From positions 128,001 through 192,000 of IMG/VR virus record IMGVR_UViG_3300044719_000253: a stretch of DNA of 64,000 nucleotides; one strand, 5' to 3'. Position 1 is the stretch's first letter, and the number at the start of each line of letters is the position of its first letter. This stretch comes from a virus (lineage: Duplodnaviria; Caudoviricetes). A model generated the notes under the pieces. That model did not search any database and was not told the DNA's origin. It saw only the letters and a list, made by a program, of their open reading frames with translations. Below are positions 1 through 34,464 of the stretch, in pieces. The translations under genes and the position numbers were made by a program.

Positions 1-427
1 AGCGGATCTGTTGTGTTGGGTCGTAGGTCAGCTCCACGTAGAGCCAACAGGATTGTCGGTGAACGGCGTGGGTATGGATGTCGCCCAGCAGACGCGGGAA
101 ATAGAAGTGCAGCCGGGTTTCAGTGTCGTAGTCGTGGTGGGTGCGGAGATGATCCAAGAGCATTTGAAACTCGGGATGGTCATCTTCGCGGTAAGCTTCG
201 ATATAATGGACATCCGACAACCGTTGGCGAATCACCCAATCAATCCATACATCACGTTGGGTGAAGGAAGGCTGAAACCGGTTCACTGCCGTCCATGGAT
301 AGTTCAGATCCAAGGGTTGATGATCGATGATCCACGGAAACCGGTCCGCCGAACAGTCTAAAACGCGCTCTAGGTAAGTCAAAAAATCATAGATGTCCAG
401 TATCCAGACCGAACGTTTTTGCGCCAT
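1..427 (-). CDS. hypothetical protein, partial (runs off window start; absent from ORF track)
   Basis: Translated by hand from ATG at 427 (SD AAAAGGA upstream): MAQKRSVWILDIYDFLTYLERVLDC..., open to position 1. A TATATTAC motif lies at 453-460. Confidence 0.75.
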   Translation of the reverse strand, partial: MAQKRSVWILDIYDFLTYLERVLDCSADRFPWIIDHQPLDLNYPWTAVNRFQPSFTQRDVWIDWVIRQRLSDVHYIEAYREDDHPEFQMLLDHLRTHHDYDTETRLHFYFPRLLGDIHTHAVHRQSCWLYVELTYDPTQQIR

Positions 428-452
428 GGCGGTCCTTTTAACGTGATTCCAC

Positions 453-460
453 GTAATATA
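453..460 (-). promoter_or_regulatory. putative early (virion RNAP) promoter core TATATTAC
   Basis: Exact match to the phiKZ early-promoter motif, 25 nt upstream of the ATG at 427. Lacks the upstream YTAR element at the 13-nt spacing seen in the other copies. Confidence 0.55.
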
Positions 461-504
461 ACAGTGATGGGTAAATTAATGCCGAAACGAACTTCCGACG
501 GCAT

Positions 505-559
505 AAAAAGAAACACCACTTACCCAAACGCTCTCGTGAGAGAACCCTTAGGTAAGTGG
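505..559 (-). terminator. intrinsic terminator closing the phuZ/structured-RNA transcript
   Basis: Stem CCACTTACC...GGTAAGTGG (516-559) followed on the minus strand by TGTTTCTTTTT. Confidence 0.65.
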
Positions 560-1117
560 GAAATGGAGGGGCCTGAGATAACTAATGTTGACCAGGTCCG
601 TGATTCATGACTCAAAGACCTGTGTCCCTTCGTTCAATCTACTCCCCTCCAAGTATACTTCGTTTAACGTCCGATGATCCCGTCGTGTAACGCTGTGAAA
701 AACGTTACAGAGGACGTACAGACTCGGACCGACGCCGAATAGGCGCCGAATACCGCACGCGGCGGATAGGCTGAGAGTGTGAGATATCTATTTCACGGTT
801 TACCACGCAGAATGGGTAAACCGTGAAATGAACCCGAATGGAAACAGATGTAAGCTGACGTATCCCCTTAAACACGTGCCCACATAGTTCGCCTAGGATT
901 GATTGAGCCGACCCAGGGCGGGCGGGCTCCCACACACCACCATACCAATTCTCAAACGAGAACGGATCATGAATCTCCAACGGTAATGGATACATCTCGA
1001 CCGAAGGAATCAGATCCAGCAATTCCACCACGTGGCCGAAGCCGCTATGGAGAATGCTGGTAATGGTGGCTCTCAGCCATCCACCGGAAGGCGAACCTCC
1101 GATGATGGCAACGCGCA
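560..1117 (-). ncRNA. putative large structured RNA (3' trailer of phuZ)
   Basis: Nested helices: 1050-1069 pairs with 937-953; perfect 15-bp hairpin 790-804/815-829; 644-651 pairs with 564-571; TTCG-capped hairpin just after the phuZ stop. Confidence 0.55.
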
Positions 1118-2146
1118 TTACGCGAAGCTAACGCTGTTGACTTCGTCGTCGTCGTCCATCTCCGCTTCGAGTTGATCCGGCAGCGGGCGGTTGGCCGCGT
1201 CACGCAGATCGGCGATAATCTTCGACACCAACCCGTCGGTGATCAGATAGTTGGCCGACGTGCCATCGAAAGCGTTGCTGGCAGTCAGGTTCGGCACGAA
1301 GCCCACAGCCTGGTATTCCGGCATGTAGTCTTCGGGCAGATCCGTATGCACCCCCTGACGGGCCAGCGTAGCCACCGACAGGATGTTGCCGATCTTGTCG
1401 AGATCCGCTGCGAACAGATCGTCGTCCGCTTCTTTCGACCCGCCACGCAGCAGGATGTTCAGGCTGAACAGCTGCGGCTTCAGGCCGGACGTGATACCCG
1501 GCTTGGTGAAGTACAGCCAGTTGCGCAGGTCCATCGGGTCGAGTTCGCTGTTGCGGTTCGAGTACAACAGGCCGAGGTAGGTGATCGTCGACAGCATATG
1601 GTCGTTGACCTTGTCACGCGGCATGTTGACCGAGTTTTGCAGGTAGCTCATCACGACCGGGGCATTGCGTGCCTTGGCGATTTCCTGGTAGTTCTTGATC
1701 GTGGCACGGGTGTTGTTGATTTCGCGACGTGATGCGATCACGCCGATCAGCAGCACGATGGTCTGTTGACCTGCCGCCAGCAGTTCCGTCACGATCGACG
1801 GCGCCAGCACCGAACCGGAGCCACCAGCACCGGTGGACAGCACGATGTTCAGGTCGAGCGGTGGATGGGCCTTCAGGATCGGCTTGGTGTGTTCACGTGC
1901 CAGCGCCAGGTTTTCGGTGCGGTCTTTACCCGAACCCTTGGTCTTGGGCAGCAGGTAGGTTTCCATGCCGAGCGTGTGGTCGCCCAGATTGGACACTGCG
2001 GTGTCGATTTGCACCGGCTCGAAGCTGGCCAGCATTTCCGGATTGATGCGGATCTTGCCGAGTTGGCTGGCGATGTTGATCGCGGCGCCGCCGCAGCAGT
2101 ACAGACGGATGCGGCCTTTGGGGGCGGTGTTGATAGTTTCGCTCAT
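1118..2146 (-). CDS. phuZ: PhuZ phage tubulin
   Basis: Tubulin/FtsZ motifs CCGGAAIN, QIDTA, GSGKDR and signature GAGGSGS; 342 aa with acidic C-terminal tail. Confidence 0.95.
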   Translation of the reverse strand: MSETINTAPKGRIRLYCCGGAAINIASQLGKIRINPEMLASFEPVQIDTAVSNLGDHTLGMETYLLPKTKGSGKDRTENLALAREHTKPILKAHPPLDLNIVLSTGAGGSGSVLAPSIVTELLAAGQQTIVLLIGVIASRREINNTRATIKNYQEIAKARNAPVVMSYLQNSVNMPRDKVNDHMLSTITYLGLLYSNRNSELDPMDLRNWLYFTKPGITSGLKPQLFSLNILLRGGSKEADDDLFAADLDKIGNILSVATLARQGVHTDLPEDYMPEYQAVGFVPNLTASNAFDGTSANYLITDGLVSKIIADLRDAANRPLPDQLEAEMDDDDEVNSVSFA

Positions 2147-2262
2147 GGTGTTTCCTTGTGTTTTTGGTTATGAAAAGCTTAAGTTCAATTGGACATTGAA
2201 TATAAGCAACTATGTAAAAAAACACTCAGCCAGCTATGCCGCCAGCCGAGTGCAAACGAGGT

Positions 2263-4548
2263 TCAATAAAAACGCTTGCCATGGCGAGTCAACAATCCCG
2301 CCATGAGATACGCACGCAACAGCTCTGGAGTCGCCGGGACATTCATGGCGATTTCCCGGTAAGGCAAATTTTGACTGGTCAGTTCAGCGCTGATGGGCAA
2401 GTTCGCCGTAGCCATGTTCGGCTTTTTCAACGGCACCAAATGGTAAATGTCATTGGTACTGAATTGCACTTCCGCCGCGTTCGTTACCATTTTTATCGCT
2501 TCGCCGAGCAGCAGAGGAAGTTGAAAATGCCGCGCGATATAAAAGTTTGCCTGCGGAAACGCTTGCTGGAACAAACCGGCAGACGCCGTCACCATGTCAT
2601 CGGTTTCAGCGTCCATCACATGCACAACGAACACTCCTTCAAATTCCTGGGATTGAGAGGAGAGATGATTATATTCCACACCACCCTGATCAACAGAAGT
2701 TTGTGTGATCTGCTGCGCTTGACTGGAAATCGCTGCGTTCAGCCGTTCACGCACCGTCACGGGATCCAACAACATCGATAATGTAAATTCAGTGGTGGGG
2801 TTGGGGTTATCGGACAGGACCTTTCGCATGACATTAAACTTGCTCATTCTTTCGGTCGGAGTCGATGGCTTGATCAGAACATTTTGAATTCTGAGGTGGC
2901 CGTAGGTCGACATCGCCACCGCGGTCGCTTCGTTCAGGATTTTTGGTATAACGCCGGTAATATCCCCCTTATCGTAGTTTACCACATGAATTTTGGCGGA
3001 CGGGAATGCCGCCTGCAAGTTCCGCCGATGAAACTCGAAAGTTGCAGCTACCGAATTGTCTTCAACGTGAACCAGGAATACGCCGTCAAAATTCTCTGGG
3101 AACATCGAACCCAGCCATTGTTCCTTCAATGAGGATTGATGGATCGGGGGGTACGAATAGACTGGTTCGGAGGACGGGGTTGGGAAACGGAAACCATCCG
3201 GCATCTTTGGGAATGAATTCATCTGCGGGAGCGGGCCATAGGGTTGAGAATTCCATGCCGGACCACGCAGCAACGTTTTTTCCAGATGCGGATACACCGT
3301 CCGCGACAGGTCATCGAACTTCTTTTCCAGAGCGCGCTGGCCGGCAATAAAGTCATTCGACAATTTCCCCAAAGCCTTTTCGAGATAACGGACCACCGCG
3401 CCCTCAGCTGGACCGCCATCCGCTGCGGTATTCTCGACCGGTTTATCGCGCCGAGAACGCAAATACGCTTCCGCATGCGTCAGGTATTCGATAGTCCATG
3501 CCCGAGCAATTTTCCTCGAAGAGTTGGGGTCGCTGAGCAGATCGATCGCGTTGCGAACGGCTATGCACAGTTCATCCATACCGACCAATTGAGTTGGTTC
3601 TTCGTGCAGAGTTTCTGCTGATTTTGCCAATTCGCCGGTGCGCAGCGATTGAATCACCGTGTCGATCGATGCAACGAGGCTGGCCACTTCTTCCTTATTG
3701 GGTTCAACTTGGTTGCGGAACACGTTGATCAACGCGTCGACCAAATCAATGTCGTTATGTGTCGACATCGCGAGTGGGCGCAATGCCAGTACTTCACGGG
3801 CACCGTACAGTTCACTCAAGATACGTTCCACACTGATCGACTTTTCTTTGCCCGGGTCCAACAACAGCTGCCGAGCGAGTTCCAGCGTGCATTCGAATTG
3901 GATGGTGTTCATCGTTTGGGGTTGGGGGTTCATCGTGGTATCCTGTTGTGGTTGTTGGTTAAAGCCGCGGGACAGCAAATTCTGAATAACGTTGTACAGC
4001 AATTCTGGACGTTTGGCGATGACAGGTTCGTCGTTGGGGCGAATATAGAAGTTGTCACACTCGCGCACCTTATCGAAGAGGAAGTTCATCGGGTTTTTCG
4101 GAATCAGCGACGCAAGATGACGGAAGCTATCGGTGTGGTGATCCATGATCACGATCCAACGATCCTTCGTGTGACCCCGTTCTCGCCACCCCATCAAGAG
4201 TTGCTCGAAGCAATGCCAATAAACCAAGATTTCTTCATCCACAGAATCTTTGTCGCCGATGTTAAAAATGTACGAGCCGGTGGCACGTAACTGATCGATC
4301 GTTTTACCAATCGGCACGGCAGCACTATTAGTCCACTGCGGCACCTTGACACCGTAGAATAAAATGTGGAGCTTGGGGTTGGTGTTTTCACCAGCAGTGA
4401 TGTCGATCGATTCGTAGGGTTGAATTTCTTTGTTGCATTGTGAGCAGCGATCATTGTGCGCGCTATCACCTACGACCCCCCAATGTTCATCACAATGCCG
4501 ATAGTAGTTTTGATACGTTTTTGATTCTTCCTGCTGAATGTCGGCCAT
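2263..4548 (-). CDS. large hypothetical protein: N-terminal Cys/His cluster, duplicated C-terminal domain, possible internal start at 3933
   Basis: 761-aa ORF with SD (GAAGGA). N-terminal HCDEHW...DRCSQC. Internal repeat FDGVFLVHVED..AFPSA versus FEGVFVVHVMD..AFPQA. Confidence 0.8.
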   Translation of the reverse strand: MADIQQEESKTYQNYYRHCDEHWGVVGDSAHNDRCSQCNKEIQPYESIDITAGENTNPKLHILFYGVKVPQWTNSAAVPIGKTIDQLRATGSYIFNIGDKDSVDEEILVYWHCFEQLLMGWRERGHTKDRWIVIMDHHTDSFRHLASLIPKNPMNFLFDKVRECDNFYIRPNDEPVIAKRPELLYNVIQNLLSRGFNQQPQQDTTMNPQPQTMNTIQFECTLELARQLLLDPGKEKSISVERILSELYGAREVLALRPLAMSTHNDIDLVDALINVFRNQVEPNKEEVASLVASIDTVIQSLRTGELAKSAETLHEEPTQLVGMDELCIAVRNAIDLLSDPNSSRKIARAWTIEYLTHAEAYLRSRRDKPVENTAADGGPAEGAVVRYLEKALGKLSNDFIAGQRALEKKFDDLSRTVYPHLEKTLLRGPAWNSQPYGPLPQMNSFPKMPDGFRFPTPSSEPVYSYPPIHQSSLKEQWLGSMFPENFDGVFLVHVEDNSVAATFEFHRRNLQAAFPSAKIHVVNYDKGDITGVIPKILNEATAVAMSTYGHLRIQNVLIKPSTPTERMSKFNVMRKVLSDNPNPTTEFTLSMLLDPVTVRERLNAAISSQAQQITQTSVDQGGVEYNHLSSQSQEFEGVFVVHVMDAETDDMVTASAGLFQQAFPQANFYIARHFQLPLLLGEAIKMVTNAAEVQFSTNDIYHLVPLKKPNMATANLPISAELTSQNLPYREIAMNVPATPELLRAYLMAGLLTRHGKRFY

Positions 4549-4613: not shown

Positions 4614-4638
4614 GTAATATAGCCTTTAATTTTTCTAG
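4614..4638 (-). promoter_or_regulatory. putative early promoter CTAG-N13-TATATTAC
   Basis: Minus strand reads CTAG AAAAATTAAAGGC TATATTAC, upstream of the 761-aa gene. Confidence 0.7.
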
Positions 4639-4647
4639 GAGCCTGAA

Positions 4648-5457
4648 GTGAATCCCATCACTAAAGCACTTGACGAGGTTGCCTTCCGGATTCCGCGTGA
4701 GATCCTGAAGGTGGTGTTCCTCGAACCATATCAACAGTACCGGGATCTGCCTGGTGATATCAAAGAACGCATTCGCTACCTCGTGCTGCAACAACGGGTG
4801 CTGGTTGACTGTAACTTGATGAACGGGGTGGAAACCCGCATCGATTTGTCGGATCTTCCCCGCGAATCGGTGGATGATGGCTACACCACGGTGTTCCGGA
4901 TCCCGAAGAACCGCACCAACGGTCGTTCGATCCTGAGCGTGTTCGATGTGACGTACGGCGACCTGTATAACACCCAATCTGGGTATGGGGTATATTCTTA
5001 CAGCCGATCGAGTCCGGCATTGCAACTGGCCAATGCTGCAATGGAAGCGCAAGTGCGTACGCCGTATGTCGGCTCGACCCGGGTGGAATTGATCGGGGAA
5101 AACGTCATCATGGTGCAAGACGCGATCATCCTACCCCAGAATCTGTATCTGCGCTGCTCACTGGAGAACGATGAGAACCTGTCGAATATCCATGCTCGCA
5201 GTTATCTGGTGTTTGCCCGGTTGGTGGAACTCGCAGTCAAGGCGTATATCTACAACTCCTACGTGATCCGTCTGGATATCGGCGAACTGCGCGCAGGTGT
5301 GCAGATCGGTAAGATCAAAGAAATCATCGATGGGTACGCAGACGCAGAACAAATGTATCAGGACCATCTGAGGGAAGTTTGGAGTAAGGTCTCGTTCATG
5401 AACGATCAAGAATCGATGCGACGTTACATGAGCCTGATGATCGGCTCGTCGCGGTGA
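4648..5457 (+). CDS. conserved phiKZ-like protein, probably virion structural
   Basis: 269-aa ORF, GTG start with AGGAG SD, TATG late-type motif near 4592, ends at a palindromic terminator. N-terminus MNPITKALDEVAFRIPREIL resembles jumbo-phage core proteins as recalled. Confidence 0.6.
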   Translation: MNPITKALDEVAFRIPREILKVVFLEPYQQYRDLPGDIKERIRYLVLQQRVLVDCNLMNGVETRIDLSDLPRESVDDGYTTVFRIPKNRTNGRSILSVFDVTYGDLYNTQSGYGVYSYSRSSPALQLANAAMEAQVRTPYVGSTRVELIGENVIMVQDAIILPQNLYLRCSLENDENLSNIHARSYLVFARLVELAVKAYIYNSYVIRLDIGELRAGVQIGKIKEIIDGYADAEQMYQDHLREVWSKVSFMNDQESMRRYMSLMIGSSR

Positions 5458-13365: not shown

Positions 13366-13390
13366 GTAATATAGTCCTTCAATTTTCTAA
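13366..13390 (-). promoter_or_regulatory. putative early promoter TTAG-N13-TATATTAC
   Basis: Minus strand reads TTAG AAAATTGAAGGAC TATATTAC, near-identical to the 4614 copy. Confidence 0.7.
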
Positions 13391-27954: not shown

Positions 27955-28020
27955 AAGGAAACAAAAAAGAAAGAGGGCATACACCCCACCCCGACCCGAA
28001 GGCCGAGGTGGGGAGATGTC
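27955..28020 (-). terminator. intrinsic terminator closing the 166-aa gene/structured-RNA transcript
   Basis: CCCCACCTCGGCC-TTCG-GGTCGGGGTGGGG then TGTATGCCCTCTTTCTTTTTT on the minus strand. Confidence 0.75.
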
Positions 28021-28416
28021 AACCGTGTTGCGTCGGACGGCCATGGCAAAATGTCACAGCCGATGAGAAGATCACGGTCTCCTCTAGGTACAGTTACCCA
28101 TACCTACGAATACGTTACCCGATGGGGACCAGGAGACCCCGGGTTCTACTGGAGTGTTTCGAGTAACGTAATCCCGAAATGAGGTGGTTATGACTGGGAG
28201 GGATCATGGCTCACTTCCCATTCGGGATTTCTCACGCATGTCACGACAGCGACTCACAGGGCAGCGTGATGCCCCCAACCAAGCTCCCAGGCGACACAGC
28301 CACTGGCGACCTGTTTCACTCAGTTGATTTCCTTAGACGCGGTTACATGGCGACTCGACAAGGTGTGCCTGGTAAGCTGTTTGTCAAGTGGGCATGGGTA
28401 ACCGCACCGTGTGGCG
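28021..28416 (-). ncRNA. putative pseudoknotted structured RNA (about 400 nt)
   Basis: Nearly fully paired: 28398-28405/28339-28346, 28381-28388/28354-28361, 28221-28228/28171-28178. Crossing helices 28159-28170/28111-28122 and 28131-28138/28076-28083. Loop 28264-28269 is complementary to 28232-28237. Confidence 0.65.
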
Positions 28417-34098: not shown

Positions 34099-34464
34099 CC
34101 TTTGGTCTTCAGGTAGGTCGTTAAGCTACCCCGCACCATTACGTGCCTAGCTCCAGAGTTTTCCTCTGGACGTTGAGACTATATCTTCACCCTCTCCCAT
34201 GGAGGTGGGGTGCTTCCCATTTCGAGGCCACTTGGTCCCCTATGGACATTTGTCCTAGTCGTTGAAGTTTATCCGTGGCCGCGTTGCGGCTTTAGGATCT
34301 TACCTGCTAAAGAGAGTCTTCGACTCTACGGTTCCGCAATCCGCTCCGTTTTCAAACCATCACGAATGATCTTTCGATCTGCGTTGTGGTGGAGCAGCTC
34401 TCAGTCGGTTCCAGCAGTTAGAGAAGATTCAGTTAAGCATTCCGGCTTAACTGGACCCCAGTTG
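34099..34464 (-). ncRNA. group I self-splicing intron (366 nt, no homing endonuclease)
   Basis: 5' exon ends in U (GAT GAT) and the intron ends in G. P7 elements TTCAACGACTA (34256-34266) and AAGATATAGTC (34177-34187). IGS TGGGGTCC pairs with both exons (P1/P10). Splicing restores DRDD|PKR. Confidence 0.9.

Follow-up and report, generated by a model that had tools for sequence, protein, structure and literature searches.

Organization of the phuZ locus

We examined a 64-kb stretch of DNA (the window) from the 226-kb IMG/VR virus record IMGVR_UViG_3300044719_000253, and within it the region that directly follows phuZ, the gene for the tubulin PhuZ. Comparison with related loci shows that this region holds a clade-specific, conserved and strand-specific structured RNA of approximately 600-800 nucleotides (nt), composed of a 5′ part that carries a small open reading frame (ORF) and an ornate noncoding 3′ module. 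All element coordinates given below are window coordinates, and the strand analyzed is the phuZ strand, which is the minus strand of the window. phuZ itself (1118..2146, minus strand) encodes 342 amino acids and was assigned to PHROG phrog_4733, tubulin PhuZ, with an E-value of 1.9e-64. Its product is approximately 28-35% identical to the PhuZ proteins of cultured Chimalliviridae-type phages, with the nearest cultured relatives found in Burkholderia, Ralstonia and Xanthomonas jumbo phages. The phuZ stop codon TAA (1118-1120) overlaps the ATG of the small ORF, which encodes 137 amino acids (705..1118, minus strand), in the arrangement TAATG. A spacer of 690 nt (428-1117, minus strand) separates phuZ from the next gene, which encodes 142 amino acids (2..427, minus strand), is cut by the window edge and is syntenic in all relatives; searches of this downstream gene against Pfam and PHROG returned no match.

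The comparison set consists of 12 loci, namely the window and 11 related metagenomic phage contigs whose PhuZ proteins are 45-84% identical to that of the window. Two of these are IMG/VR contigs with PhuZ identities of 84% and 79%, and nine more were found through PhuZ homologues of 45-56% identity. The order of a large upstream gene, phuZ, a spacer of 670-1156 nt and a gene of 142-163 amino acids is kept in all 12 loci. The element is present as a single copy in the 226-kb genome.

A conserved structured RNA on the phuZ strand

On the phuZ strand, positions 479-1117 have a minimum free energy (MFE) of -277.7 kcal/mol, compared with -209.9 +/- 6.8 kcal/mol for dinucleotide shuffles (RNAfold, z -9.9). 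The opposite strand of the same region reaches -227.8 kcal/mol (z -7.1) and is thus 50 kcal/mol weaker. The original prediction, which was made from the letters of the window, had read this region as a succession of helices following phuZ, and we found every one of them on the minus strand at the positions that had been assigned: a GGC-UUCG-GCC hairpin at approximately 1040-1050, a long-range helix in which CCACCAUUACCAGCAUUCUC (1050-1069) lies opposite GAGAAUUGGUAUGGUGG (937-953), a perfect 15-bp hairpin at 790-829, the stems UGUAACG/CGUUACA and ACGUCC/GGACGU, the pairing of UGGAGGGG (644-651) with CCCCUCCA (564-571) around CAGGUC/GACCUG, and a two-tier hairpin (516-559) followed by a U-rich tail (505-515). 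For the long-range helix, comparative data back the CCACCAUUACC/GGUAUGGUGG portion. The 15-bp hairpin is variable among loci, and the ACGUCC/GGACGU stem is present in the window but is not conserved, as comparative data prefer a GUCYGA/UCGGAC helix that is kept in all relatives. Strong folding is general among the spacers, with z-scores of -4.0 to -10.1 in 13 of 13 (the 12 clade loci and the spacer of Burkholderia phage FLC9, which is described below), whereas the flanking coding controls (a 600-nt stretch within phuZ and 420 nt from the downstream gene) range from -3.0 to +1.0.

The noncoding 3′ module (506..770, minus strand) is supported by a covariance model and by covariation, and measures approximately 265 nt in the window and approximately 265-330 nt across the clade. 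Read along the RNA, it contains a hairpin H_a (753-765), a second hairpin H_b (730-748), a helix H_c (724-729 with 669-674) that closes a variable insert, a near-invariant single-stranded tract GUUAAACGAAGUAnACU (652-668), a helix H_d of the GGAGG/CCUCC type (644-651 with 564-571), and a helix H_e (617-622 with 593-598) with the conserved internal-loop strands CGAAG and CAUUAG. A multiple alignment reveals blocks that are invariant or nearly so despite a PhuZ identity of only about 50%; these are CCAUCCGC-UGCGU-GCGG, GUCUGAGUC and AUCGGACGUUAAACGAAGUA, together with CGAAG, GCAUUAG, CCAUUUC and CUUACCUAA...UAGGUAAG. Among 82 well-occupied unpaired columns, 27 are identical in at least 10 of 11 sequences, and nucleotide identity between the two subgroups of the clade is at least as high in the module (approximately 0.70) as in phuZ (approximately 0.65). 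The module contains no conserved ORF. Small ORFs within it were inspected, and one frame of 10 codons, which follows GGAGGGG, is retained by the three closest relatives alone. A search of the genome for complementarity to the invariant tract gave matches at chance level.

To quantify pairing, a covariance model (R1) was built on the three closest sequences and a 74-pair structure that had been checked by hand, and it matches 11 clade loci over their full length with E-values of 1e-14 to 1e-91. Because the variable inserts were misaligned, MAFFT combined with RNAalifold gave only 32 pairs on 11 sequences, and covariance-model alignments were used instead. In the module (11 sequences), 95.5% of alignment cells hold a standard pair, and in its core of approximately 180 nt (12 sequences) the figure is 95.6%; when the 3′ partner is slid by 1-3 columns, pairing falls to 38-47% and 40-53% of cells respectively. 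Both sides have changed in 38 of the 74 module pairs and in 28 of the 45 core pairs, compared with 3-8 and 4-7 in the slid controls, and the observed values for pairing and for both-sided change were reached by 0 of 500 shuffles in either case. Compensatory changes in the 3′ module therefore go well beyond the controls, as expected of a conserved structured RNA, and the claim of a conserved, multi-domain RNA on the phuZ strand is borne out by this extensive covariation. G-U pairs make up 10.3% of cells, which marks the phuZ strand as that of the RNA, and the opposite strand would pair in 86.7%.

The same data bear on whether the region could act as DNA, for instance as a tubC-like centromere for PhuZ (cf. 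TubZRC), as a replication origin or as a protein operator. The element does adjoin a tubulin-family segregation gene, and an inverted repeat is found among its conserved blocks. We nevertheless judge a DNA-level element to be very improbable, as pairing is kept through G-U and is asymmetric between strands (95.5% versus 86.7% of cells, and the 50 kcal/mol difference in MFE), and as covariation links helix strands that are 100-300 nt apart, something for which a DNA binding site has no need. The iterated direct repeats that would be looked for in a tubC-like site are also lacking. The sole direct repeat is one two-copy near-repeat of 13 nt, which on the RNA strand reads AUCAUCGGACGUU (666-678, at the start of the invariant tract) and AUCAUCGGAGGUU (1094-1106, in the IIGG codons of the small ORF); it is probably due to chance, and as a conserved feature it is absent from the distant subgroup.

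The 5′ domain is structured and carries a reading frame

The small ORF encodes 88-116 amino acids in the relatives, and its frame is open in 12 of 12 loci, with no stop over 88-137 codons where each of the other two frames contains one to eight. For each lineage, the chance of such an open frame is on the order of 0.7%. The ORF begins in overlap with the phuZ stop and lacks a Shine-Dalgarno sequence. Among relatives the start is found at TAATG, at TGATG or within approximately 15 nt of the preceding stop, and the overlap with the phuZ stop is seen in most loci. In a single locus (L023), an extra ORF of 170 amino acids (4029-4541 of that locus), for which Pfam gave no match, lies between phuZ and the small ORF, and the small ORF starts a few bases after the stop of this insertion. 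The frame is also kept in constant register with a hairpin that has a UAAGG loop, the loop always being read as xxU-AAG-Gxx.

The first 31 or so codons align readily as IxVIGGGxLGxxIxxAL..VVE. In this N-terminal block, pairwise identity averages 0.45, 0.62 and 0.32 at the first, second and third codon positions, which is the same ordering as in phuZ (0.67, 0.75 and 0.54). The open frame and the codon-position pattern are together those of a protein-coding sequence. The ratio of nonsynonymous to synonymous substitution rates (dN/dS) is 0.3-0.6 at the N-terminus and 0.24-1.08 elsewhere on alignments that are uncertain, and past the N-terminus the amino-acid sequence is barely conserved. The original prediction had likened the region to large noncoding RNAs and had named the 137-amino-acid ORF as the case that would speak against this; a purely noncoding RNA is at odds with a frame kept open throughout the clade. 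It had also proposed to weigh covariation against codon conservation. Both signals are in fact present, since covariation was found and the N-terminal block of the ORF also displays a coding-type substitution pattern. The observation of a structured RNA after phuZ is thus confirmed, and its interpretation is partly supported, as the RNA exists and has no counterpart in Rfam but cannot be called purely noncoding.

In sequence, the N-terminus of the small ORF looks like the start of a Rossmann fold. A GxGxxG-type motif is visible in the ORF alignment, and the predicted secondary structure is beta-alpha-beta-alpha followed by disorder. A family profile compared against the PDB gave weak matches (E 0.007-1), and only to the N-termini of NAD(P)-binding Rossmann proteins, and Pfam matches were sub-threshold and limited to one or two of the 12 members. 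A complete dinucleotide-binding domain, by which we mean at least approximately 120 amino acids, six strands and a match at the Pfam threshold, was not found among these products of 88-137 amino acids.

Such a truncated resemblance raises the question of a degenerate self-splicing intron or mobile RNA that was inserted in an ancestral Rossmann-fold gene, whose first exon would now be the small ORF. It would agree with an ORF that holds only the first beta-alpha-beta(-alpha) of the fold, and introns do occur in jumbo phages (PMC13282480). Membership of the group I and group II introns was rejected, as neither gave an Rfam match even at E<=10, a terminator-like hairpin and then a promoter follow the RNA, and a second exon is absent downstream. 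Furthermore, the profile search returned no full-length relative of the small ORF among 1.84 billion representatives, and selection continues to keep the ORF open. We therefore regard an intron origin as extremely improbable.

The codons of the small ORF also take part in a 5′ structured domain (762..1117, minus strand), which is supported by recurrent folds and by RNAalifold. Three nested long-range helices organize this domain, namely P_close (1071-1079 with 767-776), P_lr (1059-1070 with 936-946) and P_in (1045-1058 with 1018-1032), and it further contains a GC-rich hairpin, the hairpin with the UAAGG loop (approximately 856-880) and the variable 15-bp hairpin at 790-829. In independent MFE folds, 10 of 11 loci form the three nested helices from a homologous 5′ strand, which corresponds to the codons of the predicted helix alphaA, even though the sequences differ in each locus. 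The spacing of the partners recurs as well, with that of P_close near the domain end, that of P_lr at approximately 175-200 nt and that of P_in at approximately 95-130 nt. Versions of P_lr across loci include GCCACCAUUACC/GGUAUGGUGGU, CCACUAUUUCU/AGAAAUAGUGG, CCGCUCUUAUAA/UUAUGAGAGCGG and GCUGCAAUUCU/AGGAUUGCGGC. Within three close relatives, RNAalifold identifies 36 pairs with compensatory changes. The best single duplex between the 5′ strand of the helices and the rest of the domain scores z -0.4 to -3.4 against shuffles; this is a weak test, and the argument therefore rests on the recurrence of these nested partners from one independent fold to the next. Lastly, the apparent C-terminal protein motif HxxKG is in fact a hairpin, with the conserved UAAGG loop and a covarying stem.

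These observations can be set against another account of the locus, an ordinary small protein gene followed by an ordinary 3′ untranslated region (UTR), in which structure is incidental to coding or composition. The ORF is indeed open in every locus, it has coding periodicity and a Rossmann-like N-terminus, and gene callers annotate it in several contigs. However, it spans only 40-60% of the unit, and the best conserved part is the 3′ module, where a conserved ORF is lacking. Inside the ORF, helices covary while residues change freely (dN/dS of approximately 0.45-1.0 past the N-terminus), as in the HxxKG motif that turned out to be a hairpin loop with a covarying stem, and the flanking genes lack a comparable excess of folding. 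An ordinary gene is for these reasons an improbable explanation. On the evidence of sequence comparison, the first 270-410 nt or so of the unit is both coding and structured, and we conclude that the small ORF is in all likelihood translated and that its N-terminus matters, with most of its length shaped by RNA pairing.

The terminal hairpin and transcription signals

The unit ends in a two-tier hairpin, CCACUUACCUAAG...UUUGGGUAAGUGG around GUUCUC/GAGAGC, with its U-rich tail (505..559, minus strand). The core stem CUUACC/GGUAAG is invariant across the clade, with neither strand changing at pairs 196-200 with 233-237 (numbering of the core alignment) in any of the 12 loci, and the motif occurs just once in the 226-kb genome. 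From its shape and U-tail, we infer that this hairpin presumably serves the phuZ transcript as its intrinsic terminator. A simple terminator scan missed 516-559 owing to the interruption in the stem.

Outside the RNA lies the promoter and ribosome-binding site (RBS) region of the next gene (428..504, minus strand), recognizable as a conserved block in all relatives. It consists, in order, of a conserved TATGCCG, a small hairpin, TTAATTTACCC and TTATATTAC (453-461), and AAAGGA is also present. The published promoter consensus of phiKZ is TATATTAC (PMC7058600, Table 2), and TTATATTAC matches it. In the window, (C/T)TATATTAC occurs at 453-461, 4614-4622 and 13366-13374, all on the minus strand, where it precedes three genes by 40-80 nt. 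These sites follow an A/T-rich AAGG(A/C) stretch and match the early-promoter consensus of phiKZ and 201phi2-1, and (C/T)TATATTAC is probably the virion RNA polymerase (RNAP) promoter of the phage in the window. At the other end of the unit, the terminator scan places the terminator of the upstream gene ahead of phuZ, and nearly all members (L001-L025) carry a clade-conserved block (T)TATTCAATGTCC approximately 55 nt ahead of the phuZ start, which in the window is located at 2191-2205 (minus strand). This block possibly represents a different promoter class. Because a terminator and a promoter-like block precede phuZ, and because the next gene has a promoter of its own, we assign the unit to the phuZ transcript. 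The junction of a T-run with TATGCCG (499-505, minus strand), immediately past the phuZ terminator, recurs in the clade and in two cultured phages, Ralstonia phage RSL2 and Burkholderia phage FLC9, although the upstream RNAs differ; in other loci it is positioned at approximately 4043-4052 (L014) and 4682-4694 (L016). This junction may be a conserved signal for transcription initiation or for processing.

A structured domain directly 5′ of a terminator-like hairpin is also the architecture of a conditional terminator, that is, a riboswitch-like attenuator in which the 3′ module would sense a ligand or factor and gate read-through of 516-559 into the next gene. The strands of the invariant stem could join alternative pairings. 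By inspection we found no convincing antiterminator alternative, and Rfam gave no riboswitch match. The downstream gene, moreover, has its own conserved promoter-like block and RBS, and we consider attenuation quite improbable.

Distribution and relation to known RNAs

The RNA occurs only in one small clade of jumbo phages, which are uncultured, encode PhuZ and are phiKZ-like. A long structured spacer is not general in Chimalliviridae, since the gaps after phuZ are short in phiKZ (54 nt), RSL2 (239 nt) and RTH11 (186 nt). A 20-nt core pattern was found in three IMG/VR contigs and in the window's own record, which scans may omit, and in none of 185,579 prokaryote species genomes. The 2.4-kb region had zero blastn matches in the phage collection. 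Scanning metagenome contigs with a PhuZ profile returned only distant loci (31-34% identity), all without the RNA, and the 12-sequence covariance model found none in five distant PhuZ loci. In an exact 16-mer scan of IMG/VR, three of five matches were discarded as chance because their flanks are dissimilar. FLC9, RSL2, RTH11 and phiKZ were each rejected as carrying homologues of the RNA, as no covariance-model match was obtained in their loci at E<=10 or in the whole genomes at E<=1 (for phiKZ, in the locus only). A lead from the literature, the phiKZ ‘5′UTR_gp40’ noncoding RNA (ncRNA), was likewise set aside, as it has a different locus tag and the gap between phuZ and gp40 in phiKZ is just those 54 nt.

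In the cultured phage FLC9, phuZ is followed by an unannotated, ORF-free spacer of 770 nt (LC667451, 7020-7789; L016:3985-4754) and then by a homologue of the 142-amino-acid gene. Like the clade spacers, that of FLC9 is strongly structured (z -7.1 and -4.5) and has the same TTTTTTTATGCCG junction downstream. Unlike them, it has no covariance-model match and no small ORF, and it is unique in the phage collection. The FLC9 spacer may be an independent or a highly diverged counterpart.

Rfam 15 at gathering thresholds identified zero families across the entire 64-kb window; it was also silent at 34099-34464, a candidate group I intron in the virion RNAP beta gene. A cmscan of positions 300-1300 at E<=10 gave just three chance-level matches to unrelated families, and searches of five related loci gave nothing relevant. 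The original prediction had been unable to assign the RNA to ROOL or GOLLD, and this reservation was well placed: cmscan matched no family, and membership of ROOL and GOLLD was rejected, as their covariance models gave no match. The RNA here shares with ROOL and GOLLD a size of approximately 600-800 nt, an ornate multi-domain fold and an association with phages. It differs from them in host range and phage type, being found in a PhuZ-encoding jumbo-phage clade, and in its position inside an mRNA directly after a coding gene, with a conserved ORF as its 5′ part.

Other systems resemble the unit in part. SgrS/SgrT and RNAIII/hld are dual-function bacterial RNAs, encoded by independent small RNA (sRNA) genes that act by antisense pairing. 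They too combine a small ORF and conserved RNA structure on one transcript, whereas the unit here belongs to a tubulin mRNA as its 3′ part, greatly exceeds them in size and is not known to act on a target. Among phages, ncRNA candidates within 3′ UTRs have been described as PAK_P3 ncRNA1/2 and as phiKZ candidates, with sizes of 70-210 nt (PMC10914365). Like these candidates and other 3′-UTR-derived sRNAs, the unit shares the terminator of the upstream gene and has conserved sequence just before it, but it is 3-8 times larger and has long-range helices. OLE RNA, of approximately 600 nt, forms a ribonucleoprotein (RNP) with dedicated small proteins (PMC9723947). Both are large and ornate, with highly conserved nucleotides within a conserved fold and, in our case possibly, a dedicated adjacent small protein. 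The two show no homology, and OLE is a bacterial (Firmicutes), membrane-associated RNA produced as an independent noncoding transcript.

A region near 28 kb of the window (27955-28416, minus strand), also regarded as an RNA, folds with z -4.96, and parts of it match the two closest relatives at 76-85% identity. It was not found in one more distant complete genome, and it has no sequence in common with the phuZ element. The original prediction had suggested that the two may belong to a system of large RNAs placed 3′ of strongly expressed genes, which is at present a conjecture.

A possible RNA scaffold made with PhuZ

We favor, with about even confidence, the reading that the unit is a 3′-UTR-borne structured RNA or RNP scaffold made together with PhuZ, whose small ORF is coupled to phuZ translation by restart. 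Transcription from the phuZ promoter would yield the unit as the 3′ portion of the phuZ message, with its end at the 516-559 hairpin. The 3′ module would then fold into a defined tertiary structure and, protected by the terminal hairpin, persist as a stable RNA. A conserved partner, either protein or RNA, would be bound through the invariant tracts GGACGUUAAACGAAGUA, CGAAG/GCAUUAG and CUUACCUAA/UAGGUAAG. Ribosomes that finish phuZ would restart on the small ORF and, in doing so, would have to melt P_close and P_lr; translation and folding of the 5′ domain would therefore be mutually exclusive. Such exclusion would couple the conformation of the RNA, or the amount of the small protein, to phuZ translation.

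The most serious rival is a purely cis-acting 3′ region, which would stabilize the mRNA of phuZ and the ORF against 3′ exonucleases or tune translation of the small ORF, with no RNA acting in trans and no partner. Several features are what it would predict, as the element sits inside the phuZ transcription unit with a strong hairpin and U-tail at its end, the start of the small ORF overlaps the phuZ stop, and P_close and P_lr sequester ORF codons. A stabilizer, however, needs neither some 300 nt with near-invariant unpaired tracts nor a stem that stays invariant at approximately 50% PhuZ identity, and RSL2, RTH11 and phiKZ manage with gaps of 54-239 nt and a plain hairpin. We rate a cis-acting role alone as rather unlikely.

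Several points weigh against the scaffold. Read-through past phuZ, termination at 516-559 and accumulation as a stable RNA are all steps that we infer, and the binding partner of the 3′ module is postulated. AlphaFold gave the product of the small ORF a predicted local distance difference test score (pLDDT) of 43 in two runs, and the ORF is an orphan, as its profile retrieved only the clade ORFs and two repeat artefacts from the 1.84 billion representatives; given both results, any role for the protein is hypothetical. Only some 12-15 members are known, and every one is metagenomic. Covariation was counted on model-fitted alignments, which somewhat inflates pairing. Evidence that the helices are real comes from the slid controls and from the range of pair types observed.

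A bolder extension of the scaffold is that the unit represents a new class of phage RNA, messenger and machine at once, which would be co-transcribed with PhuZ, form a particle by means of its invariant loops and hairpin, possibly with its own small protein, and serve a role specific to the lifestyle of these phages. We hold this extension to be doubtful. If it were true, the particle could localize or scaffold the phuZ mRNA or PhuZ synthesis, or engage the translation apparatus through the GGAGG/CCUCC helix.

Large ornate RNAs are rare in bacteria and phages, and those that have been found, such as ROOL, GOLLD, OLE and raiA, have proved productive for structural and functional work. The RNA described here adds a well-supported new candidate with two unusual features, in that it adjoins the tubulin gene of a nucleus-forming-type jumbo phage and that its 5′ half is also a conserved frame. 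It offers a defined core of approximately 180 nt for probing, cryo-EM and partner searches. For the phages of this clade, it means that what gene callers report as a ‘hypothetical protein’ after phuZ is, in part, a sequence constrained mainly at the RNA level.

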